From IMG/VR virus record IMGVR_UViG_3300045136_000406: a DNA stretch of 41,151 bases; one strand, 5' to 3'. Shown here piece after piece: positions 1 to 41,151 of this stretch. Origin of the DNA: a virus. The position numbers were made by a program, and so were the translations under genes. The notes below the pieces were generated by a model, which saw only the letters and a list, made by a program, of their open reading frames with translations, made no database searches and had not been told where the DNA came from. Every line of letters starts with the position of its first letter. Position 1 is the stretch's first letter.

Positions 1-127
1 AGCATTTTGAGCATTTTCTGAGCCCGCCAGATCCCACGTCCCGACCCGTCCGCGACCGCGCCCACCCTCGACTAAAATGCTCCGGCCTGCCCGCGTGAGC
101 TGCGCGAGCTCGCGCCGCGCGCTGCTC
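1..127. repeat. Terminal direct repeat, copy 1 (identical to 41025..41151); indicates a circular sequence opened arbitrarily
   Basis: agcattttgagcattttctgagcccgcc...cgcgcgctgctc is present at both window ends, 127 nt, no mismatch seen by eye. Confidence 0.9.
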
Positions 128-1350
128 TCGGTGATCCCGAGCTCGAGCGCTACATCCTCCGCAGTGACCCGCCCGAGCCGACGCAGCGTTGCCACGACCT
201 GCTCGGGGAGGGCGAGCCGCGCCACCAGCGCCGCCACGTCGCGCACGTCCTGGCGGCGGAACGCGACGGACGTCGCCCGCCCCCAGGCGTCGGACTCGAA
301 CTCCACGCGCAGCCCGATCGGGGCGAATTGCCGCGTGTTGTTGCGTTTGATGTGGTAGAGGCCCAGATCGAGGAAATTGCTCTCGGCCTCCTGAGCATTT
401 CGAATTTCCCAGCTCACGCGGGCGTCCGCCATTTTTCGGTCGGCCCCGACCGCCTTCCCCGCCAGGCCCTGGCGCTGCCCATCCGCCGAGACATGGTCGA
501 TCAGCAGGTGCGCCACGGGTCCCAGCAGAGCGACGGCCTCGGCGTACTCGATAGCGATCGACTCCCAGCTCGCGTGCTCACCGGGTCCGCCCGAGAGCCG
601 CTGCACAGAGTCGTGGATCAGCGCGCCGTAGCCCTGCTCGGCGATCTGGCGCGCGAGGAACTCGGTGTGGTCGGACAGGCGCCGCCGCGGCACCCAGCGG
701 TCGACGGCGATCGGGGCAATGCCGAGCCCCGCGCAGACCGCGCGCACGCGCCCGTTGAAGACCTCGAAGGAGTCCTCCTTGTCGAGATAGAGCGGCCTCC
801 GCCGCTCGACCAGCAGCCCGCAGAATGGCAGCCCGAGCTGCATGCACACCGCGAGCGCGACCGACAGAAACCCCTTGCCGGCACCCCGCGGTCCGTAGAT
901 CAGGCTGATGCCGGTCTGCGCCACCAGCCGCTCGACGGCCCAGGGCGACTCCTCGGAGACGGGCTCGAGACCGCCAGCGCGGATCGGCTCGCCCTCCTCG
1001 CGCTGGCGGTCCACCGCGTCGCAGAAGTGGTTGAGCACCCCGAGCCAGTCCGCGGCCGGGATGCGCTGGCGGCCCTCCGGGTCGCGGCCGCACGCCAGCT
1101 CGAGGTGGCGCGCGAGCGTGGCGCGCGCGGTCGAGCTGGACAGGTTGGCGCGCGCGTTGTGGATCACGGTTGGCAGGCCGCTGCGGGTGCTGGTGACGCG
1201 CAGCCGCGCCGAGAGGTCGCCGCCCGACTCGCGCAGCCGGTCGGCCGCGAGCACGAGCCCCAGCGGCCCGAGGTCGAGCGTGTAGCCGAGCCCGAGCGGC
1301 GTCACCTCCGGCAGCGCCGGCCGCAGCGGGATCGGCTCGGCCGCGCTCAC
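1..1350 (-). CDS. RepA/DnaB-like P-loop helicase with C-terminal winged-helix; 5' part (450 codons), ORF continues across the window ends into 41024..40881
   Basis: Absent from the ORF track because there is no stop before the left edge. GTG at 1350-1348 overlaps the TGA of the upstream gene (GTGA). My translation is open throughout and contains LIYGPRGAGKGF (Walker-A-like), RPLYLDKED (Walker-B-like) and VTAEDVALELGITESSARRELAQLTRAG (wHTH-like). Confidence 0.6.
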   Translation of the reverse strand, partial: MSAAEPIPLRPALPEVTPLGLGYTLDLGPLGLVLAADRLRESGGDLSARLRVTSTRSGLPTVIHNARANLSSSTARATLARHLELACGRDPEGRQRIPAADWLGVLNHFCDAVDRQREEGEPIRAGGLEPVSEESPWAVERLVAQTGISLIYGPRGAGKGFLSVALAVCMQLGLPFCGLLVERRRPLYLDKEDSFEVFNGRVRAVCAGLGIAPIAVDRWVPRRRLSDHTEFLARQIAEQGYGALIHDSVQRLSGGPGEHASWESIAIEYAEAVALLGPVAHLLIDHVSADGQRQGLAGKAVGADRKMADARVSWEIRNAQEAESNFLDLGLYHIKRNNTRQFAPIGLRVEFESDAWGRATSVAFRRQDVRDVAALVARLALPEQVVATLRRLGRVTAEDVALELGITESSARRELAQLTRAGRSILVEGGRGRGRVGTWDLAGSENAQNA

Positions 1351-29900: not shown

Positions 29901-30989
29901 CTAGCGCGCTGCGAGCGCCCCCTGGCGAGCCAGCCGCCGCCGCCGCCATTCCAGATCCGCCGCCACGGCGGGGTCCTCCGCCGCCACGCTCGGCGGCTCC
30001 GTCTCAGCGGCCCGCTCCTCGCCCGCGTCGCCCGGAGCGGCCTCGATCGGGGCGATCTGCGCGGGCAGGAGGTACGGCGCGTCGTCCTCGGCCGCCTGGG
30101 CGCGGCGCCGCGGTCGGCGGTAGCCGCCCGATTGCATCCTCGCGAGCGTCTCGGCGAATGTGCCGATCCGATCGGCCATGCCCTGCGCCACCGCCGCCTG
30201 CGCCCCCACCAGCCGCCCCTCGCCCATCCCGGTCCGCACCGCCGCGTTCGGCACCCCGCGCCCCCCGGCAACCGCCCCGACGAACATGCCGTAGTAGCGG
30301 TCCACCTCGCGCTGGAGCTGCTCGCGGGCCTCGGCCGACAGCGGGAACTCCGAGGCCCCCTCGGCCTTGAATTTGCCCGCGGTCACGAACGTGGTCACGA
30401 TGCCCCGCTGCGCCAGCGCCCCGGAGAGGTCGTCATGCGCGGCGATCACGCCGATCGAGCCCACCAGCCCGCTCGGGGTGACCACGAGCTCGTCGGCCTG
30501 GCTCGCCAGCCAGTATGCGGCCGAGGCCGCCATCGAGTCGGCGACCGCCACGATCGGCTTGCCCTGGCCGCGCGCCGCCGCGATCTCGGCCGCCAGCTCG
30601 GGCACGCCGAACACGCTGCCGCCGGGGCTGTCCACCTGCAGCAGGACGCTGGAGACGCTCGGGTCGGCCAGCGCCGAGCGGAGCTGCTGGGCGAGCCCGT
30701 CGAGGCCCTGGAGGCCGCTCGACTCGCCGATCGCGCCGGTCCGCTGGACGAGCGTGCCCATGATCGGGATCACCGCGACGCTCCCCTGGCGGCTCACCTC
30801 GCCCCGCCGCGCGGCGCCGACCAGCGTCTGCACCTCGTCGGCCGAGACGCGCCCGCCCGCGGCCCGTAGCGCCATCAGGTCGCAGATGGCGGCGAGCTTC
30901 TCCGGCAGGATCGCCCAGGGGGCGGAGCTGAGCGCGCGCAGAATGCGCGGGTACAGCACGACGCCCCCCACCGCCAGATCCTCAGCCAT
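29901..30989 (-). CDS. Prohead protease, S49 (SppA/ClpP-like) family
   Basis: 362-aa track ORF. LQVDSPGGSV, ADSMAASAAYWLASQAD, GSIGV blocks typical of S49 peptidases. Confidence 0.8.
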   Translation of the reverse strand: MAEDLAVGGVVLYPRILRALSSAPWAILPEKLAAICDLMALRAAGGRVSADEVQTLVGAARRGEVSRQGSVAVIPIMGTLVQRTGAIGESSGLQGLDGLAQQLRSALADPSVSSVLLQVDSPGGSVFGVPELAAEIAAARGQGKPIVAVADSMAASAAYWLASQADELVVTPSGLVGSIGVIAAHDDLSGALAQRGIVTTFVTAGKFKAEGASEFPLSAEAREQLQREVDRYYGMFVGAVAGGRGVPNAAVRTGMGEGRLVGAQAAVAQGMADRIGTFAETLARMQSGGYRRPRRRAQAAEDDAPYLLPAQIAPIEAAPGDAGEERAAETEPPSVAAEDPAVAADLEWRRRRLARQGALAAR

Positions 30990-33366
30990 GCCCGTTCCTC
31001 CCCGCGCCGACCAGCGCCCGGAGCTCCTCGAGGTCCGCCCGCGCGTCGGTCCCCTGGGGTCCGGGCGGCGTGGTCCCCAGCGGCGCCATGTTCAGCGGCA
31101 CAAGGTACTCATCGCCACCCTCGACCGGGTTCATGTCCTCGAGCGCGCGGATGTCGTTCACCGAGAGGAACCCCCATTGGCGCCCGATTGCGTAGGCCGC
31201 GAACCTGGTGGCCGTGTCGCCGCGCATCAGCGCCTGCACCTGGTGGCGCGCGAAGTAGGAGCCGTTGGTCAGCAGCCGCTGCTGAATCTTCTGCTCCCAG
31301 CGCGTCAGCCAGGGCATCAGCGTGAACGCCACGAACCCGACTGACATCTGCTCAATCCCCGTGCCCCAGGAGGTCGAGCGGTCGACGGTGCCGATCATAT
31401 GGGGGGGGACGCGGAACCAGCGCGCCACATCCACCACCTGGAACTCGCGCGTGTTGTGCGTAACGAGCCCCCCCGTGATGTGCGTGTGCACATCCTCAAT
31501 TTCAACACCAATGGTGGGTCCGGGCGGGAGTGGCTCGACCGATGTAACGCGGTCATAGAAGAAATTGCGGTCGCTGTATCGACTCGGCGGGAGGTTCCCA
31601 TAGCGCGCAAGCCGCCGCCGCTTGTCGGGATGATGAGGCACGAGCGCGTGAGCCAAAAGACGTAGGGGCATTGTTCCCATGACGTAGAGTCCCCAGGACT
31701 CAAGCGTCGGGCTCTCTCCATGGGGAAACATCCGCCGTCCCGGCAGTTGCATCCGGTAGATGGCGCTCTGAATTCCGAGCATGCTCAGGAGATGCTGACA
31801 GTCCTCAAGCAGTGGACGGCTGACACTACTCCAATACACCGCCGGCGTTTGCCGACCGTCAGGATCGCGCACCGAACCGTCTGTATCGAGGTACCCCGAG
31901 AGGAATCCCCGCCAGGCTGATGGGCCGCCGCGCAACACCGCATCGGGCACGCGCTTCGAATGGGAGTGCTTCCCGACAAGCCCGCTCTCGTTGAACAGGG
32001 AGCGGATTTCCGAGCCGCCCCGTCCTCGCGTCCCACCAGTATTGAGGTTCCAATCATAGGGGCGGCTCGTCGCGTGGGAGAGGCCGCCCCCCATCGTGAC
32101 CGCGACTCGATCCATCTCCTGAATCACACCGGCGTCGGCATTGCAGAATGAAAACCCAGCCGTGCGGATATATCCGTCGCCAGTCATTGCGCCTAGCATC
32201 CATGCTCGGTCAGTGCTCAGCGCATCGGGTTGCGGAACATGCCCCAATCCAACACGAATGAGCATCCCCGGCTTCACTGCAGACAGCGGCACCCAGGAAT
32301 CTGGGGAGTCGTCCACGCGATTCCCAGGAGTGCGGAGTCGCTCGCGCGCCAAACACGGATGATCCGCGCTTGCGATCAACTCGCGTCCGCGCGCCGTCGT
32401 AATGCGCACCAGGGGCTTGACCCGTGGCAGCCCAACCGCATGCACGCGCGCAGAGACGGGGCCATCGCGCCACCCGACGACTTCGTCCCCTGGCCGCAGC
32501 GCCTCAACCGCCATGCGAGTTCCGTCCGCCATGGTTACGGGCGTACCAGGAACAACACAGGCGAGGAACTGGCTATCCTCGTTGCTCAGTCCCATCTGCT
32601 GCCAGGAGAGCCCCTCCTCGAGCACCGCCACGCGGTGGGCGTTGGCCCCGCCATACGCCTGCTCCCAGCGCAGCTTGAGGTCCTCGGCCGCGCCGGGCGA
32701 GAGCTTCCCAGCGGTGGTGAGCACGCCGCCGGGGCGCGAGCCGTTGCCGAAATAGCGACCGCCATAATCCTCGGCCGCCAATGCGAGCCCGAGCGATTTG
32801 CGGGCCGCCGAAATGATCGAGAGCCCCATCACGCCATCGCTGGACGGTCCGCGCAGATGGAAAATCTCATCCTCCAGATAGACCACCCGCTGGGCCATGC
32901 CCTGGGGCTGATAGCTGTAGCGGATCGAGCGGTCGGGCAGTTGCTCGACCCGCATGCGGTCGGGATGCAGCGGGATGAGCTGGTCCACGGGTCCGCGCGG
33001 CCCCGGCACGATGAGCGCGTAGGCGTTGCCCCGAAGCAGGACGTGCCCCTGCATCATGTCCCGGAACTCGACCGCCGTCTGCCATGGGTTCGGCTGGTCG
33101 TGCAGCAAGTCGAACACCGGGTGGTCGCGGGCATAGTCCTTCCCGCCGCCCCGGCGGTACTGGTAGACGTTGAGCGGCAGCATGGCCACCGACTCCGCGA
33201 TCAGCCAGGTGCAGGACCACACCGCCGACGTGGCGAGCGCGGTGTCGGGGGTCACCTGCTGGCCGGCGACGGGCTGGCCCCAGCCCAGCGGCTGGTACCA
33301 GTAGTCCGACGCCCCCGCCCAGCCGCCCGCCGCCCGCAGGTTGGACATGGCGCGGATGAGCCCCAC
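30982..33366 (-). CDS. Portal protein (HK97 family) interrupted by an intein
   Basis: 794-aa track ORF (GTG start). Exteins of 269 + 156 aa; portal motif ...NEDSQFLA / TREFQVVDVARWFRVPPHMIG is split by the insert. Confidence 0.85.
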   Translation of the reverse strand: MGLIRAMSNLRAAGGWAGASDYWYQPLGWGQPVAGQQVTPDTALATSAVWSCTWLIAESVAMLPLNVYQYRRGGGKDYARDHPVFDLLHDQPNPWQTAVEFRDMMQGHVLLRGNAYALIVPGPRGPVDQLIPLHPDRMRVEQLPDRSIRYSYQPQGMAQRVVYLEDEIFHLRGPSSDGVMGLSIISAARKSLGLALAAEDYGGRYFGNGSRPGGVLTTAGKLSPGAAEDLKLRWEQAYGGANAHRVAVLEEGLSWQQMGLSNEDSQFLACVVPGTPVTMADGTRMAVEALRPGDEVVGWRDGPVSARVHAVGLPRVKPLVRITTARGRELIASADHPCLARERLRTPGNRVDDSPDSWVPLSAVKPGMLIRVGLGHVPQPDALSTDRAWMLGAMTGDGYIRTAGFSFCNADAGVIQEMDRVAVTMGGGLSHATSRPYDWNLNTGGTRGRGGSEIRSLFNESGLVGKHSHSKRVPDAVLRGGPSAWRGFLSGYLDTDGSVRDPDGRQTPAVYWSSVSRPLLEDCQHLLSMLGIQSAIYRMQLPGRRMFPHGESPTLESWGLYVMGTMPLRLLAHALVPHHPDKRRRLARYGNLPPSRYSDRNFFYDRVTSVEPLPPGPTIGVEIEDVHTHITGGLVTHNTREFQVVDVARWFRVPPHMIGTVDRSTSWGTGIEQMSVGFVAFTLMPWLTRWEQKIQQRLLTNGSYFARHQVQALMRGDTATRFAAYAIGRQWGFLSVNDIRALEDMNPVEGGDEYLVPLNMAPLGTTPPGPQGTDARADLEELRALVGAGRNGHG
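31453..32559 (-). mobile_element. Intein (369 aa) with LAGLIDADG homing-endonuclease domain
   Basis: Starts CVVPGTPV (Cys1, codon 32559-32557) and ends ...GGLVTHN followed by Thr+1 (Asn codon 31455-31453). Block B IASADHP. LAGLIDADG motifs WMLGAMTGDGYI and FLSGYLDTDGSV. GC is visibly lower than in the flanks. Confidence 0.85.
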
Positions 33367-33525: not shown

Positions 33526-35033
33526 CCCAGCACCAGCAGCGGGCGGCTATCGGCGTAGAGGTACTCGCTCGCGGGCGCGGGCTCCTGGGCGCGCAGACAC
33601 GCGATCGCACAGGCGACTGCCGCGTCAATCTTCCGCCGCGACCCCTTCGGCTTGCTGAGGCGCCACCCCCGCGGCTTCTGGTCGGCCACGGCGTTGGCCA
33701 CCTGGCGCGCCAGGATCGGGTCGCCGTCGTGGGCCAGCCTGCGCTCGACCACGAGCTGGTAGAGCCGCTGGCTGGCGGGGACCATGCGGCCGTCATGCTG
33801 CGGGAACTCGACCATCGCCAATCCGTCTCCGCTCAACACCTGCGCCGAGCGCTGGAAATACGCGGGGTCGTAGCTGAACTCGGGCCCTGGCTGCACCGCG
33901 CCATCAATCTCGCAGGCGGGAGCCGGGAACCGCTCGCGCAGCGCGCGTAGATGCTCCTCCACCTCGAACAGGTTCAGGCTCCAGTCGCCATGCCGCGGGT
34001 CGTCCTCCGCGTAGGGGTTCTCCCATACCCTCGCCCGCACCACCGTGCGCTCGCCCTGCCGCTGGGCGCATACCACCGCCGTGCTGTCGTTGCGCAGTGC
34101 CACGTCGATCCCGACCCGCAGCGGGAGGGCGGGGTCCAGCTCGAGCGCGGGCTCCCTGCACGCATCCCAGGCCCCGAATGGGAGCCACGCCTCGCTGCTC
34201 GCCGTCCAGGTATTCAGGAAATAGCGCCGAAACACCGCCTCGGTCTTCTTGCTCAACTGATCGCGAAAAAACGGCTCGTGCACCAGCACGCCATAGCTCG
34301 GGTTCGCCGCCGCCCAGACCGCCGGTTCGTGATGATCGGCCGACTCCGGCGCTTCCTGACACCAGGAGAAATACGCCGGGTCATCAATCTCTCCACTCGC
34401 CACCTTGCGGCCATACTGATACTGGCGGTAGCAGATGGAGTCCTGGTCATAGCCCGCCGTCGTCGTCTGGATTACCAGCGGCTGTCGCCGCGCCCCCGTC
34501 CCATTCGTGAGTACGTTCCATACCTGGGTACCCTTCGGCCCCGTCCACTCGTGCAGCTCGTCGAGCAGGCAGGCCGAGATGTTCTGCCCGTCGTTCGTGC
34601 CCGTGACCGCCGCAACGCGCTTCAGACGCGCCCCCGGAATGCTGGGCACCTGAATCTCCTTGTCGAATCGCTCCGTGATCTGGCTCAGGGTCGGCGAGAG
34701 CTCGCACATGCGCTTCGCCGCGCCATACACCAGGTCCGCTTGCTCATCGCTCGCCGCCGCGCAGACCACGAGCGGGCTCGGCTCCCCGTCGGCGATCAGC
34801 AGATAGAGGCCAATAGCCGCCGCGAGCTCCGTCTTCCCGTTCTTCTTCGGCACCGAGATGTAGGCCCAGCGGTGCTTGCGCAGCCCGTCCGCGCCCACCT
34901 CGAAGAGGCCATAGATCAGGCGCTTCTGCCAGTCCAGCAGACGAAACGGCTGGCCGATCCACTCGCCGTTCGTGAAGACGCAATGCGTCTCAATGAACCG
35001 GACGACCCGCGCGCCCTGGCTAGGACGCGGCAT
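33522..35033 (-). CDS. terL: Terminase large subunit
   Basis: 503-aa track ORF. Walker A VPKKNGKTELAA, LLDELHEW, Terminase_1-type layout. Confidence 0.9.
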   Translation of the reverse strand: MPRPSQGARVVRFIETHCVFTNGEWIGQPFRLLDWQKRLIYGLFEVGADGLRKHRWAYISVPKKNGKTELAAAIGLYLLIADGEPSPLVVCAAASDEQADLVYGAAKRMCELSPTLSQITERFDKEIQVPSIPGARLKRVAAVTGTNDGQNISACLLDELHEWTGPKGTQVWNVLTNGTGARRQPLVIQTTTAGYDQDSICYRQYQYGRKVASGEIDDPAYFSWCQEAPESADHHEPAVWAAANPSYGVLVHEPFFRDQLSKKTEAVFRRYFLNTWTASSEAWLPFGAWDACREPALELDPALPLRVGIDVALRNDSTAVVCAQRQGERTVVRARVWENPYAEDDPRHGDWSLNLFEVEEHLRALRERFPAPACEIDGAVQPGPEFSYDPAYFQRSAQVLSGDGLAMVEFPQHDGRMVPASQRLYQLVVERRLAHDGDPILARQVANAVADQKPRGWRLSKPKGSRRKIDAAVACAIACLRAQEPAPASEYLYADSRPLLVLG

Positions 35034-36342
35034 ATGTGCCTGCCGACTCCCGCCGCGCCGTCTCGCCGGTGAGGTTCTGCCAGCGGTTGACGATCACATC
35101 GCAGTAGCGCGGCTCGATCTCCAGCCCATAGCAGATGCGGCCCAGCTGGTGCGCGGCGATGAGGGTCGTCCCGCTGCCGAGAAAGGGATCATACCAGTCT
35201 CGCCCATTCCACGCCTCGAGGAATGCCGCTGGCAATCCAACGGGAAATGGTGCGGGATGATCGTTCACTTCCTCGTCAGGCTTCTGGGGCGAAAGACGAA
35301 TCACGCTGTCTGGAATCTTGAACGGCTGAATCGGATCACCCGCTCCTGTGAATTGTTTGAGGCTGCCATCGGGATTTCGCTGAGTCCTGCCGACGCGGCG
35401 GCCACAATTCTTGCTCGGAGTTACCTTCTCAGGCCGATCTGCAACACGAGCGAAATGGAATATCCACTCATGTGCGGGAGCCAATCTTCCGTTCCAGTCG
35501 CCGGGCATGCCATTGAGTTTGTCCCATACGTACCAAGCAAAAAGCGGCCAACCAGCAGACTCGACGTCATCGAGAAATGAGTCCCAGTAGCGGATAACGC
35601 GGCCATCACGATGCACTAGACCAAGATTCACAAAGACCTGTGCATCCTCCTCCACAAAGGCCAGTCCGGCGGAGAACACGCAGGAGAGGAGAGCATGCCA
35701 ATCGGATGCCATGTTGCCAGCATAGGCACGTTGCTGCAGAAATGGCGGACTGGTAAAAACCCCCCTCGCCCGCTGCCCGCCCATCACCCGCTCCACGTCC
35801 TCGCGCCGCGTGCTATCCCCGCATAGCACCCGGTGCGGCCCCAGCAGCCACAGGTCGCCCGGCCGGGTGATCGGCTCAGCGGGCGGCTCGGGGATGACAT
35901 CCTCTTCGATGCCGCCGCCTACGCCAGCGAGCAGGCGCTCGACTTCGGCCGCATCAGCACCGAGACTGGCGAGACTCACGCCCGACTGGCGCAACTCGTG
36001 GAGCAGCTCCCCGTACTGGTCCTCGTTCCATTCGCCCGCCGCCGCGTTGTCTCGCACCGATCGCGCCTTGGCCTCGGCGTCCGTGATATCGTCCAGCACC
36101 GCCGGGACGGTCGTCCAGCCAAGATGCTGCGCTGCGCGGAACCGCTGATTCCCCGCATAGATAATCCCCTGCGCATTGGCGAGAATCGGCCGCCGCTCCA
36201 GCAGCCCCGGATCGGCCGTGAGGCTGGCACACAAGTCCCGGAAGCGCTTCTCCCTGAGAATGCGCGGATTCCATGGCGCGGGCTGTAGCCGATCCAGCGG
36301 GACCGCTTGGGGGATCACACCGCCTCCCATTCCTCTGTCCAT
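35020..36342 (-). CDS. ParB-like nuclease domain fused to a beta-class N4-C/N6-A DNA methyltransferase
   Basis: 440-aa track ORF. N-terminal ParB-N (LQPAPWNPRIL...IYAGNQRFRAA), then TSPPF (motif IV) before DPFLGSGTT (motif I). Confidence 0.85.
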   Translation of the reverse strand: MDRGMGGGVIPQAVPLDRLQPAPWNPRILREKRFRDLCASLTADPGLLERRPILANAQGIIYAGNQRFRAAQHLGWTTVPAVLDDITDAEAKARSVRDNAAAGEWNEDQYGELLHELRQSGVSLASLGADAAEVERLLAGVGGGIEEDVIPEPPAEPITRPGDLWLLGPHRVLCGDSTRREDVERVMGGQRARGVFTSPPFLQQRAYAGNMASDWHALLSCVFSAGLAFVEEDAQVFVNLGLVHRDGRVIRYWDSFLDDVESAGWPLFAWYVWDKLNGMPGDWNGRLAPAHEWIFHFARVADRPEKVTPSKNCGRRVGRTQRNPDGSLKQFTGAGDPIQPFKIPDSVIRLSPQKPDEEVNDHPAPFPVGLPAAFLEAWNGRDWYDPFLGSGTTLIAAHQLGRICYGLEIEPRYCDVIVNRWQNLTGETARRESAGTYAAS

Positions 36343-37917: not shown

Positions 37918-38286
37918 GGGGCGCTCGCTCATCTGGGTGCTCTCCACTGGGATGGCTCGCGCGTCAAACATGGTGCTCTCTCGCTCTGCGGTTCGCTCAC
38001 TCACCATGGTGCTCTCGCCTATGAGGGCTCGCTCGCTCATCGTGCTGCTCTCCGTCGCTTCGGCTCGCTCGCGCTCTTTGGCGCTCTCCAGGTTCCTGGC
38101 TCGCTCGCGGATAGTGGTGCTCTCCCCGACCCTGGCTCGCTCGCATGATGTGGTGCGCGCGCTCGCTAGGGCTCGCTCCCGTAGCTTGGTGCTCTCGGCC
38201 CTTCTGGCTCGCTCCCATACTGTGGTGCTCGCACACACGTTGGCTCGCTCCGCATCTCTGGTGCATTCCCGCATTCTGGCTAGCGC
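37918..38286 (-). repeat. Repeat array 1: 21 alternating 9-bp boxes (minus strand GAGCGAGCC / GAGAGCACC) on an exact 18-nt register
   Basis: Each box was placed by hand. Plus-strand ggctcgctc at 38026, 38062, 38098, 38134, 38170, 38206, 38242; ggtgctctc at 37936, 37972, 38008, 38116, 38188; variants fill the remaining register positions. Confidence 0.9.
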
Positions 38287-39131
38287 GTGGGGTTCGGCCG
38301 CTCGATCAGGTGGGCATGGCCGAGCTGGGCGATGGCGTAGGGCAGCGGCGGCTCGATGCCGTAGTGCCGCCTGTACGCCTCGCCGTGGTAGTGGGCGAGG
38401 AACAATTTGATGCTCCAGCGGCGGGCGCGGGCGTCGATCTGCGCGGGCGGCAGGCGGCCCGCCGCGTAGGCCTTGAAGGCCTCGGTGTCCTTGCCGATGC
38501 GGCGCGTGGCGAGAATCTGGGCCGCCTGGGCGGCGATCTCGGGGCTGCCGTTGCGCGCCTGCTCGTACGCCTTGCGCTCGACGTAGAGGTGCCCGTAGAT
38601 GTCCTTGGGGTGATTCTGGACCTTCATGAACGACTGGCCCAGCTTCCAGCAGATCACCTTCAGCTGGGCGTTCCAGGGGCGTTTCTGTCCCCGCTCCCAG
38701 GTCAGGGTCGGGTCCAGGCCCGCGAAGCGCCAGAAGTGCCCCGCGGTGGGGGCGCGGGTGATGTCGAGATGAGCGAGCAGGCCCGCGGCGAGCACGGGGC
38801 CGACGCCGACGATCGCGCGCGACCAGGCGCCCATGCCCGTGGGCTCGACCATCGTGTAGCGGTCGAGCACGGCGCGGATGGTGGCCTCCAGGTCGGCCAT
38901 CTGGCCGCGCGCCCAGCCGATGGCCAGGTGCGGCTCGCCGGCGCCGCCGAGCGCGAGAATCTGGAGGTTGGTGGCCAGGCGGTAGTCCTGGATCTGGTAG
39001 TAGAGGTCCACGAGGAACCGCGCCTCGCGCGGGCCGAGGGTGTCGGCGGCGCGTTTGAGGTCCTTGCGCAGCAGGATGGTGGGGTCGATCACAACGGATG
39101 TGGTGTCGGGGTCGTCGAGTGCGGTGCTCAC
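38280..39131 (-). CDS. IS110-family transposase C-terminal (HhH, Transposase_20-like) domain protein lacking the DEDD catalytic domain
   Basis: GTG at 39131 (residue 188 of the 470-aa track ORF) after GAGGAGGAG. GVGPVLAAGLLAHLDITRAPTAGHFWRFAGLDPT...GQKRPWNAQLKVICWKLGQSF. An alternative coupled GTG at 39311 would add the repeat-encoded extension. Confidence 0.55.
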   Translation of the reverse strand: MSTALDDPDTTSVVIDPTILLRKDLKRAADTLGPREARFLVDLYYQIQDYRLATNLQILALGGAGEPHLAIGWARGQMADLEATIRAVLDRYTMVEPTGMGAWSRAIVGVGPVLAAGLLAHLDITRAPTAGHFWRFAGLDPTLTWERGQKRPWNAQLKVICWKLGQSFMKVQNHPKDIYGHLYVERKAYEQARNGSPEIAAQAAQILATRRIGKDTEAFKAYAAGRLPPAQIDARARRWSIKLFLAHYHGEAYRRHYGIEPPLPYAIAQLGHAHLIERPNPTR

Positions 39132-39152
39132 GGGTGCTCCTCCTCGGTGTGT

Positions 39153-39305
39153 GGGGCGCTCACGGTCTGGGGTGCTCTCTCGGTTTCTGGCTCGCTCGCA
39201 CAATTTGGTGCTCTCACGAGGATTGGCTCGCTCTTCTCCCACGGTGCTCGCGGCTACAATGGCTCGCTCTGACGAGGGGGTGCGCTCGATCCTCCTGGCT
39301 GGCGC
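39153..39305 (-). repeat. Repeat array 2: 9 boxes of the same two 9-mers on the same 18-nt register
   Basis: Plus-strand ggtgctctc at 39171 and 39207; ggctcgctc at 39189, 39225, 39261; variants at 39153, 39243, 39279, 39297. Confidence 0.9.
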
Positions 39306-39940: not shown

Positions 39941-40314
39941 CGCTGCTCCTCCATCGGGTCGTCCAGCGCCGCGATGCGCAGCGGCGCCGCCAGCAGCTCG
40001 GGGCGGATCAGGATCGCCTCGATCTGGTCCCAGTGCGACGGGCGCCACACGCCGACCCGCAGCCGCCTGCCCGCGAGCAATGCCAGCCAGCGCGTCTGCG
40101 CCGCCGAGAGCCGCCCGCGCTCCCGCTTGAGCTCCACCGCCAGCGCGATCGGCGAGTCGGGGTGGACGAGCAGGAGATCCGGGAAGCCGGGCTCGGAGCG
40201 GCGGCTGTCGCGCGTGTGGTACAGATGCCAGCCCGTGAGGCGGGCGAGGCGGCGCACGCGCTCGAGCAACGCCTCCTCGCTGATCTGGGCCAGCAGGCGC
40301 GGGTCGGCGGTCAC
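39937..40314 (-). CDS. VRR-NUC domain nuclease
   Basis: GTG at 40314 (residue 79 of the track ORF, GTGA overlap). LARLTGWHLYHTRDSRRSEPGFPDLLLVHPDSPIALAVELKRERGRLSAAQTRWL. Confidence 0.75.
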   Translation of the reverse strand: MTADPRLLAQISEEALLERVRRLARLTGWHLYHTRDSRRSEPGFPDLLLVHPDSPIALAVELKRERGRLSAAQTRWLALLAGRRLRVGVWRPSHWDQIEAILIRPELLAAPLRIAALDDPMEEQR

Positions 40315-40568
40315 GCGCGGCCCCGCTGCGTCGATTCTCCGCCCGCAGCGTGCCGCCCCTGGTCGTCGCAGCGGCCCAGGCAGAGATCCCAGACGCTCAC
40401 CGCGCCGCAGAGCCCGCAGTCGTTCCGCTCGCCCGGCTGCGTCGTGCCCTCGCCACCGCACTGCTCGCAGGTCTCCAGCGTCGTGCGGCAGCGGCCGCAG
40501 CGCACGCGGCAGCGCGCCCCAGCGCGGCGGTGGCCAACGAGCAGGCACAGCAGCGAGACCAGGGCCAT
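40311..40568 (-). CDS. Small Cys-rich protein (85 aa) with DnaJ-like CxxCxGxG zinc-finger motif
   Basis: ATG at 40568 (residue 104 of the track ORF, ATGA overlap). CEQCGGEG, CGLCG. Confidence 0.5.
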   Translation of the reverse strand: MALVSLLCLLVGHRRAGARCRVRCGRCRTTLETCEQCGGEGTTQPGERNDCGLCGAVSVWDLCLGRCDDQGRHAAGGESTQRGRA

Positions 40569-40894
40569 CACGGGCGAGCCCTCCACGGATTGCCAGCGGG
40601 AGCGCGGCAGAACGTCATCTCGCCGTTGGCATTGAAGGTGGCGCCCACGCGCCCGTCGGCCATGAGCAGGAGCGCGGAGGCCATGAGCACGGTCTCGCGC
40701 GCCCAGCTCGCCACGCGCAGCAGCTCCTCGTCGCTCATCCCGAGCTCGCCATCGCCCTGCCGCGCCAGCTCCGCGCGTGCCCCGAGCGCGGAGCACAACA
40801 GTTGCGCCAGCGCCCGGCCGGCCTCCTCCTCGTCGTCGCTCGTCAGCGCCTCCGCCCACGCTGGCCAGCCGCGCCACTCCTCAGAACGGCACAT
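40568..40894 (-). CDS. Hypothetical protein (108 aa)
   Basis: ATG at 40894 (residue 66 of the 173-aa track ORF) preceded by GAGGAGGACGAGG. The upstream part of the track ORF runs through the iteron patch. Confidence 0.55.
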   Translation of the reverse strand: MCRSEEWRGWPAWAEALTSDDEEEAGRALAQLLCSALGARAELARQGDGELGMSDEELLRVASWARETVLMASALLLMADGRVGATFNANGEMTFCRAPAGNPWRARP

Positions 40895-41151
40895 CCTCGT
40901 CCTCCTCTTCGAAAATGCTCGGAGAAAATGCGCTCCGAGCATTTTCTGCCTGAGCATTTTCATTTTGTTCGCCGCTCCGCGGCGGCGAACAAAATGCTCG
41001 TAATGGGGGGGTATTAGGGGGGGGAGCATTTTGAGCATTTTCTGAGCCCGCCAGATCCCACGTCCCGACCCGTCCGCGACCGCGCCCACCCTCGACTAAA
41101 ATGCTCCGGCCTGCCCGCGTGAGCTGCGCGAGCTCGCGCCGCGCGCTGCTC
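40881..41151 (-). CDS. Helicase gene, 3' part (41151..41025 duplicates 127..1; unique tail 41024..40884, stop 40883-40881)
   Basis: Continuing the frame of 1..1350 across the junction gives ...SENAQNAPPPNTPPLRAFCSPPRSGEQNENAQAENARSAFSPSIFEEEDEDVPF then TGA. Total 497 aa. Confidence 0.5.
   Translation of the reverse strand, partial: SSARRELAQLTRAGRSILVEGGRGRGRVGTWDLAGSENAQNAPPPNTPPLRAFCSPPRSGEQNENAQAENARSAFSPSIFEEEDEDVPF
40912..41041. repeat. AT-rich iteron/palindrome cluster: 9-mer GAGCATTTT in both orientations plus two inverted repeats
   Basis: GAGCATTTT at 40937, 40952, 41024, 41033. AAAATGCTC at 40912, 40991 (and 41098 = 74). IR AGAAAATGC-N7-GCATTTTCT at 40923-40947. IR CATTTTGTTCGCCGC-N6-GCGGCGAACAAAATG at 40961-40996. 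Confidence 0.85.
41025..41151. repeat. Terminal direct repeat, copy 2 (identical to 1..127)
   Basis: See copy 1. Confidence 0.9.

Follow-up and report, generated by a model that had tools for sequence, protein, structure and literature searches.

The Rep proteins of the staphylococcal pathogenicity islands (SaPIs) are self-loading helicases in which a C-terminal winged helix binds 6-12 repeats located immediately downstream of rep (PMC9371898). The SaPI ori consists of opposed sets of repeats around an AT-rich centre, the repeats vary by element and no separate loader is used (PMC9371898). In phage lambda, ori is located within gene O, and because the ori- mutants r99 and ti12 leave the O protein active (PMC4488673), coding and origin functions can coexist where the protein tolerates change. 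Repeats are also found inside the phages' own genes for TP901-1 ORF13 and Tuc2009 Rep (PMC8965321). The IncQ plasmid RSF1010 encodes a helicase (RepA) and an initiator (RepC), and its oriV contains repeats together with the ssiA and ssiB hairpins (PMC8567376). Origins located within or beside an initiator gene are already known, and the general principle is not new. For AAA_25 proteins, no function had been described as of 2022 (PMC8965321). Here we describe a cluster of 9-bp repeats in IMG/VR virus record IMGVR_UViG_3300045136_000406 (the window, meaning the whole stretch of 41,151 nucleotides that was analyzed), found at the 3' end of a gene encoding an AAA_25 ATPase. Based on sequence comparison, the cluster (40912-41106) is probably the replication origin of this phage, with the hosting gene's own ATPase recognising it through its winged-helix domain. 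This reading is proposed because the cluster is unique in the genome, low in GC and linked throughout the protein family to the 3' end of the ATPase gene.

The repeat word GAGCATTTT has 9 exact matches in the window, while 0.01 are expected from dinucleotide-preserving shuffles. As bp 1-127 of the window are identical to bp 41025-41151, the matches at 9 and 74 duplicate those at 41033 and 41098. The 7 unique copies (plus strand at 40937, 40952, 41024 and 41033; minus strand at 40912, 40991 and 41098) are all inside 195 bp (40912-41106). The initial annotation had reported at least seven copies, four in one orientation and three in the other, within about 200 bp; this description holds, and the genome-wide count that it proposed as a check returned zero copies outside the cluster. 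Also present as described there are the variant AAAATGCGCTC (40925-40935), the 12-mer GAGCATTTTCTG (40937 and 41033), an inverted repeat with 9-bp arms (40923-40947) and a palindrome with 15-bp arms and a 6-nt loop (40961-40996). A longer 14-bp pairing, of 40911-40924 with 40933-40946, was detected as well. The cluster is the densest 7-mer repeat window genome-wide. Its GC content is the genome minimum at scales of 60 bp (43%) and 100 bp (50%), compared to 72% for the genome overall, while at 150-200 bp it ranks second to third after windows at ~35.2-35.5 kb; the initial annotation had called it the most AT-rich stretch that it saw. The elements of the cluster are as follows (coordinates, strand, description):

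40912..40920, minus strand: repeat copy, GAGCATTTT as the minus strand reads (exact match)
40925..40933, minus strand: variant copy, GCGCATTTT on the minus strand and AAAATGCGC on the plus strand (variant match)
40937..40945, plus strand: repeat copy, AAAATGCTC on the coding strand, encoding ENA of ENAR (exact match)
40952..40960, plus strand: repeat copy, the coding strand giving ENA of ENAQ (exact match)
40961..40996, no strand: GC-rich palindrome with 15-bp arms and a 6-nt loop (inverted repeat I3)
40991..40999, minus strand: repeat copy (exact match)
41000..41023, no strand: central core gtaatGGGGGGGtattaGGGGGGG, between facing repeats (read from the sequence)
41024..41041, plus strand: two abutting copies (41024-41032 and 41033-41041), translated ENAQNA (exact matches)
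41098..41106, minus strand: outlying copy within the wing-strand DNA of the winged helix, peptide RSIL (exact match, duplicated at 74-82)

The copy at 40991-40999 and the abutting pair at 41024-41041 point inward across the central core, which reads on the coding strand as a C-run, TAATA, a second C-run and ATTAC and is a candidate melting site. The arms of the GC-rich palindrome extend into the neighbouring repeats, and as single-stranded DNA the palindrome folds into a 15-bp hairpin; a comparable GC-rich palindrome is found in the same place in relatives. No cluster of DnaA boxes was identified in the genome, where just two one-mismatch boxes occur, both distant from the repeat array. Elsewhere in the window, bp 374-401 contain one-mismatch copies of the repeat, GAGCAATTT (minus strand) and GAGCATTTC (plus strand), as an inverted pair 10 bp apart in DNA encoding the conserved peptide RNAQEAES of the ATPase core. 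Their number fits chance (1.28 one-mismatch matches expected genome-wide), and the pairing is curious.

The exact 127-bp direct repeat at the ends of the window has a bearing on how the ATPase gene is read. An overlap of 127 bp is what a circular path usually leaves when an assembly is made with k=127. A contig from Logan SRR30649429 (locus L093), 100% identical over 7,494 bp that span the end junction, comes from an independent assembly and has one copy only of the 127-mer. Because this contig crosses the junction with a single 127-mer, the terminal repeat is an assembly overlap and not a genome end; true physical genome ends at this position were considered and are ruled out, as the repeat length also fits a k-mer overlap. 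The window represents the complete 41,024-bp genome of a tailed phage, which is circular or was assembled as a circle; its genes include those for a large terminase, the portal protein, a head protease and the major head protein. No tRNAs or Rfam families were found in it. Since the genome is circular with this overlap, the ATPase open reading frame (ORF) on the minus strand wraps around the window ends and terminates with a TGA stop at 40881-40883. An independent gene call (P0001) gives the same 497-aa product, which is contiguous on the Logan contig. The features of the gene and its product are:

1..127 and 41025..41151, no strand: terminal overlap (direct terminal repeat, junction checked against L093)
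1..1350, minus strand: ATPase gene, 5' and central part, with a GTG start at 1350; the ORF continues into 40881-41024
28..210, minus strand: winged-helix domain, residues 381-441 (from AlphaFold2 and HTH_11; bases 28-127 are duplicated at 41052-41151)
40884..41018, minus strand: predicted disordered linker and tip, residues 453-497 (APPPNTPPLRAFCSPPRSGEQNENAQAENARSAFSPSIFEEEDEDVPF), with a predicted local distance difference test score (pLDDT) <50
40884..40910, minus strand: acidic C-terminal tip EEEDEDVPF (from translation; the tip is in frame in relatives)

The protein starts with a beta-rich domain at its N-terminus; its AAA_25 core has the RecA fold and contains the Walker A motif GPRGAGKG, and a winged helix comes after the core. 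Pfam assigns AAA_25 (E-value: 5e-16, 59 bits against a cut-off of 27) and gives a weak match to HTH_11 at residues 384-433. Residues K159, E192, D247 and H286 are invariant across 50 sequences. An AlphaFold2 monomer model based on a 50-sequence alignment (mean pLDDT 87.9, predicted template modelling score 0.83) has a RecA-fold core, and its winged helix is composed of helices at 381-392, 397-404 and 408-420 and strands at 424-428 and 438-441, mostly with pLDDT >90. Matches in the PDB are to RecA, Rad51, KaiC and DnaB by fold and to RadA/Rad51 and, weakly, RSF1010 RepA (1g8y, E-value: 0.004) by sequence. The repeats fall within the ORF at residues ~424-488. The initial annotation had located the cluster in the 3' end of a helicase ORF, following its winged helix; the location is correct, but "helicase" is a label that we infer for a RecA-fold AAA_25 ATPase, because RecA, Rad51, KaiC and DnaB are all matched in a general way and RSF1010 RepA only weakly.

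For the family of this ATPase, an exhaustive profile search identified 1,654 cluster representatives at E <= 1e-30, and the family is known from metagenomes only. A word-indexed homologue search returned 4 proteins and an 11-sequence profile the identical 4; a scan of reference genomes found no relatives. Using tblastn, no match was obtained for the window's ATPase among cultured phages (INPHARED) or PLSDB plasmids, or for the L016 protein among cultured phages (INPHARED). We fetched 98 related loci, each anchored on the ATPase gene, and counted linkage on the first 90, which correspond to 47 non-redundant loci. A strong cluster was defined as a 7-mer occurring at least 4 times in 200 bp with both orientations counted, and the densest window was located for each locus. 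Strong clusters were found in 31 of the 47 loci. In 29 of these 31, the densest window is at most 200 bp from the ATPase stop codon, compared to 2.6 expected at uniform position, and this comparison supports the origin reading made in the initial annotation.

The repeat words are lineage-specific (CGCTGCA, CGTAGCA, CCGGACA, CCAGACA, AGGAGAC, ACAGACA, GGGTGCA, CATAACA, CGTGACA and others), while the layout recurs: direct copies are followed by CCCC and a short AT-rich core (often CCCCTTAAG) and then by inverted copies, after which there is often a GC-rich palindrome with further copies. Despite the differing words, the core between the facing repeats is near-constant, CCCC being followed by TTAAG, TTAAC or TATA (loci L001, L006, L011, L012, L016, L023, L028, L056, L059, L060, L094, L096 and L097). 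Across 63 non-redundant loci, the density of CCCC/AT cores is 0.46 per kb at distances of up to 300 bp from the stop codon and 0.06 per kb elsewhere, a difference of ~7.5-fold. The CCCC/TTAAG-type core may be a conserved site of melting or priming. In the window, the core (C-run, TAATA, C-run) departs from this type.

Two pairs of loci share both a repeat word and a recognition-helix sequence: L012 and L056 (CCAGACA with SVRTLL) and L011 and L051 (CGGACA with VRRMLDR). These pairs are anecdotal, and shared ancestry would yield the same signal. Two further loci, L006 and L023, are ATPase/array modules on one viral contig, IMGVR_UViG_3300028802_000007 (130,935 bp), at 20.8-29.8 kb and 96.1-105.2 kb, respectively. 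Their words are related but distinct (AGCGTAGC and ACCGTAGC). Assembly may have joined two related phages in this contig, or a single element may have two origins.

Among relatives that combine a long linker with an acidic tip, the five closest are the following:

P0002 (locus L001): repeat word AAAGCGCAC, 6 copies
P0005 (locus L094): repeat word AAACCGTACA, 7 copies
P0008 (locus L095): repeat word AAACCCGATC, 6 copies
P0011 (locus L096): repeat word AAACCGTAG, 6 copies
P0025 (locus L097): repeat word AAAACCGAA, 6 copies

At each of these loci, every copy falls in linker-coding DNA, and the order of elements is that of the window: direct copy or copies, CCCC/AT core, inverted copy, GC palindrome, direct copies and tip. 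Three of them (L001, L094 and L095) also have one outlying copy ~100 bp upstream in winged-helix-coding DNA, equivalent to the window's copy at 41098-41106. P0009 (L098) is intermediate, with 4 copies in the ORF and 11 past the stop codon. In P0007 (L091) and most distant relatives the array is past the stop codon, and in P0004 (L004), which has no tail, the array begins at the stop codon. The cluster is non-coding in relatives that have no tip or only a short tail.

Where the repeats are translated, they do not specify a common peptide. The window's copies encode ENAQ, RAFC, SIF and RSIL, which are unrelated, and its same-orientation copies at 40912 and 41098 are in another frame than that at 40991. 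Similarly, the frames of a single word differ in L094, where it gives NRTNRT and ETVQTV. A comparison of repeats with the encoded peptide in relatives had been proposed as a check by the initial annotation, and its outcome is that the repeat layout is kept while the peptides are not. As the copies are found in both orientations and several frames, and as the arrays of tip-less relatives are non-coding, the sequences indicate that selection is on the DNA words and not on the peptide. Selection, on the same kind of evidence, keeps the ORF open too, because the relatives' AT core holds an out-of-frame TAA or TAG and yet in each embedded lineage the frame passes this stop-containing core to reach the conserved acidic [VIL]PF tip. 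In the embedded clade, the origin most likely runs through the coding DNA of the predicted disordered linker. As such a linker tolerates almost any sequence, a single DNA segment can be origin and coding sequence at once.

The greater part of the window's cluster (40912-41041) codes for a predicted disordered tail ending in GSENAQNAPPPNTPPLRAFCSPPRSGEQNENAQAENARSAFSPSIFEEEDEDVPF at the stop codon. Bacterial SSB (single-stranded DNA-binding protein) has as its C-terminal tail a disordered linker with the acidic tip DDDIPF (PMC5872125, PMC7145534). The tip EEEDEDVPF of the ATPase fits this pattern, as it follows a predicted disordered linker and consists of an acidic run and then hydrophobic-Pro-Phe; unlike in SSB, it is borne by a replication ATPase and not by an OB-fold single-strand-binding protein. 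Proteins of this family typically have such a linker and an acidic tip with [VIL]-P-F as its last residues, as in P0002, P0003, P0007-P0010 and P0025 and at loci L005, L013, L014 and L024; among the 50 nearest representatives, 28 have a P[FW] ending. By analogy, the SSB-like tip suggests recruitment of SSB-interacting replisome proteins. The T7 gp4 helicase-primase has an acidic tail ending in Phe, and because of this parallel the ATPase tail could dock polymerase instead.

Upstream of the ATPase gene is a gene for a DnaG-type zinc-ribbon protein of 212 aa; downstream, a 108-aa gene is followed by one for a VRR-NUC nuclease. With a zinc-ribbon DnaG-like protein and a VRR-NUC nuclease as predicted neighbours, the ATPase gene is placed within a replication module. 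No intergenic gap is present between the ATPase gene and the next gene, because the ATG of the latter overlaps the tip codons of the former:

40568..40893, minus strand: 108-aa gene downstream of the ATPase gene, ATG at 40891-40893 (same call in L093, 4481-4807)

We propose the following model for initiation at this locus. The winged helices of several ATPase subunits would bind the 9-bp repeats (AAAATGCTC on the coding strand), which face each other over the C-run/TAATA core and would extend the bound array as direct copies past the GC-rich palindrome. Oligomerisation would then melt the AT-rich repeats and the core. The RecA-fold ATPase would load itself as a ring helicase with no separate loader, probably once per side, while the extruded palindrome and the upstream zinc-ribbon DnaG-like protein could supply priming. 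The disordered linker with its acidic ...DVPF tip might draw in proteins that dock on the SSB C-terminal tip. The analysis shows how the elements are laid out, their statistical link to the 3' end of the gene, the words specific to each lineage, the open frame and the predicted fold and disorder; from DNA binding and melting through helicase activity and self-loading to priming and the recruitment of partners, the steps of the model are ones that we infer. Whether the model extends to the family is an evenly balanced question: the chances are about equal that the AAA_25 winged-helix proteins as a group are self-loading initiator-helicases, each with its own origin at the 3' end of its gene and with that origin threaded through the linker in one clade, where the same DNA would be a complete origin and also encode the tether of an acidic tip that recruits partners.

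The least improbable alternative is that the array is a regulatory operator for the downstream early genes or for the ATPase gene itself, bound by the winged helix or by another protein. Winged-helix proteins are often repressors, the array is just upstream of the 108-aa gene whose start overlaps the ATPase stop, and the array forms strong hairpins when single-stranded and could act at the RNA level. Four observations make an operator unlikely. First, no sigma-70-like promoter or intrinsic terminator was found at 40300-41151. Second, the equivalent arrays of L011 and L015 are located between the 3' ends of convergent genes, which speaks against a promoter at the array as well. Third, the array follows the ATPase 3' end whatever gene comes next. 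Fourth, 6-15 copies in two orientations with an AT core are typical of origins and not of operators.

A more doubtful alternative is that the array is some other cis-acting site, such as a packaging site (pac/cos), a partition centromere or a replication enhancer like the crr of phage P4. The window ends lie exactly in the array (the 127-bp terminal repeat), and the genome encodes a ParB-domain protein (35020-36342). In phage P4, the alpha protein binds repeats at ori and crr alike. We consider each of these sites very improbable. Against genome ends in the array, 127 bp is the k-mer overlap length and L093 reads through with a single copy; moreover, a cos site would be expected near the small terminase, HNH and large terminase genes (36.8-33.5 kb), which are 4-7 kb from the array. 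The HNH endonuclease and small terminase genes are found at 35.0-37.3 kb along with that for the ParB-domain protein, which is fused to a DNA methylase. ParB-methylase fusions are probably a common phage arrangement unrelated to partition. Finally, since the genome has no further occurrence of the repeat word, an enhancer at the array would lack a second site to serve. The remaining alternative, that the repeats have no DNA-level function and are a by-product of a low-complexity peptide linker through slippage or peptide selection, accounts for the predicted disordered, low-complexity tail and for the four coding-strand AAAATGCTC copies that give ENA(Q/R) peptide repeats in one frame, but it is scarcely credible given the unrelated peptides, orientations and frames described above (including NRT and ETV from the one word of L094), the copy within the structured wing of the winged helix, the homologous arrays that are non-coding in most relatives and a layout that is conserved when the peptide is not.

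Several points weigh against an origin bound by the ATPase, which nevertheless remains the reading that we prefer. Since the loci were anchored on the ATPase gene, they cannot by themselves separate its winged helix from another protein as the predicted binder, and the helicase activity of a RecA-fold AAA_25 ATPase is, as noted, a putative one. Sixteen of the 47 non-redundant loci are without any 7-mer repeated at least 4 times. No cluster of repeats is evident at the 3' end (2500-2900) of L003, a relative with 39% identity, and its origin, if any, must presumably be elsewhere or too degenerate for detection. (L003 has a short linker with a DDLPF tip, and a convergent HTH_Crp_2 gene overlaps its ATPase stop codon.) In the window's core, the only repeat-free AT is TAATA and ATTAC between G/C runs, so that an unwinding element of usual length would be missing unless the A/T-rich repeats themselves melt. 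Lastly, the GC-skew inflection that the initial annotation had suggested looking for is absent: the cumulative skew curve turns at ~37.0 and ~39.5 kb and not at the cluster. Skew is uninformative in this genome, where it appears to follow gene orientation.

Other parts of the genome have features of their own. The GC skew changes sign between ~37.0 and 39.5 kb, a region of degenerate 36-nt tandem repeats with an 18-nt sub-period (37969-38264 and 39132-39184). These are the genome's second and third densest repeat windows, and they flank an IS110-like "transposase" (phrog_4285) gene at ~38280-39130 on the minus strand. Long minus-strand ORFs at these tandem repeats encode EST..ERA peptide repeats, and their coding status is doubtful. 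The portal protein (794 aa, 30982-33366, minus strand) matches portal profiles at residues 21-269 and 638-766. Between these is an insertion of ~370 aa with a weak "helicase" PHROG match at residues 270-535, which may be an intein or an inserted domain.

The gene-plus-origin layout, with different repeat words, recurs across dozens of uncultured phages. If our reading is correct, it would provide both a function and a cognate DNA site for a large protein family known only from metagenomes, and it would give a rule for finding origins in many uncultured phages, namely to check the 3' end of the ATPase gene. It would also place a RecA-fold protein alongside the AAA+ self-loading helicases of SaPIs as their counterpart, suggesting that the initiator-plus-helicase design arose more than once. 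In six lineages, a full origin would be housed in the frame of a disordered linker that is kept open across stop-rich AT DNA, a case of dual coding and an example of a disordered protein region that houses a complex cis-acting DNA element. The SSB-like tip would further suggest a route by which phages hijack parts of the host replisome.

The analogy to lambda drawn in the initial annotation is apt with respect to the position of the origin (PMC4488673): in both cases, repeats and an AT-rich segment are found within the coding sequence of the (here putative) initiator. The proteins are different, however. Lambda O acts purely as an initiator and depends on P to bring host DnaB, whereas here the DNA-binding domain is fused to the ATPase, and no match to the lambda O family was found in Pfam or PHROGs for the ATPase or the neighbouring genes scanned. 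The repeats are also different, as lambda ori has four direct 19-bp repeats and the window has 9-bp repeats in both orientations.

RSF1010 is similar in other respects. Among characterised helicases, RepA comes closest to the AAA_25 fold, although its sequence similarity to the ATPase is marginal (the 1g8y match above). Like oriV, which combines repeats, AT- and GC-rich segments and priming hairpins, the window has a GC-rich palindrome beside its repeats. RSF1010 has a protein of its own for repeat binding (RepC) and a dedicated primase, RepB', that reads the hairpins, whereas here the winged helix is fused to the ATPase.

Among described systems, the closest working analogue is SaPI Rep, rather than lambda O. 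Here too an ATPase is followed by a C-terminal winged helix (residues 381-441 in the AlphaFold2 model), and in the window and most relatives the repeats are located at the 3' end of the gene as opposed sets around an AT-rich centre. The ATPase is not a member of the SaPI Rep family, because its core is a RecA-fold AAA_25 domain and not the AAA+ (SF3/MCM-like) core of SaPI Rep. The position of the array also differs, in that the window and its closest relatives carry the repeats inside the ORF, before the acidic tip, and not past the stop codon.

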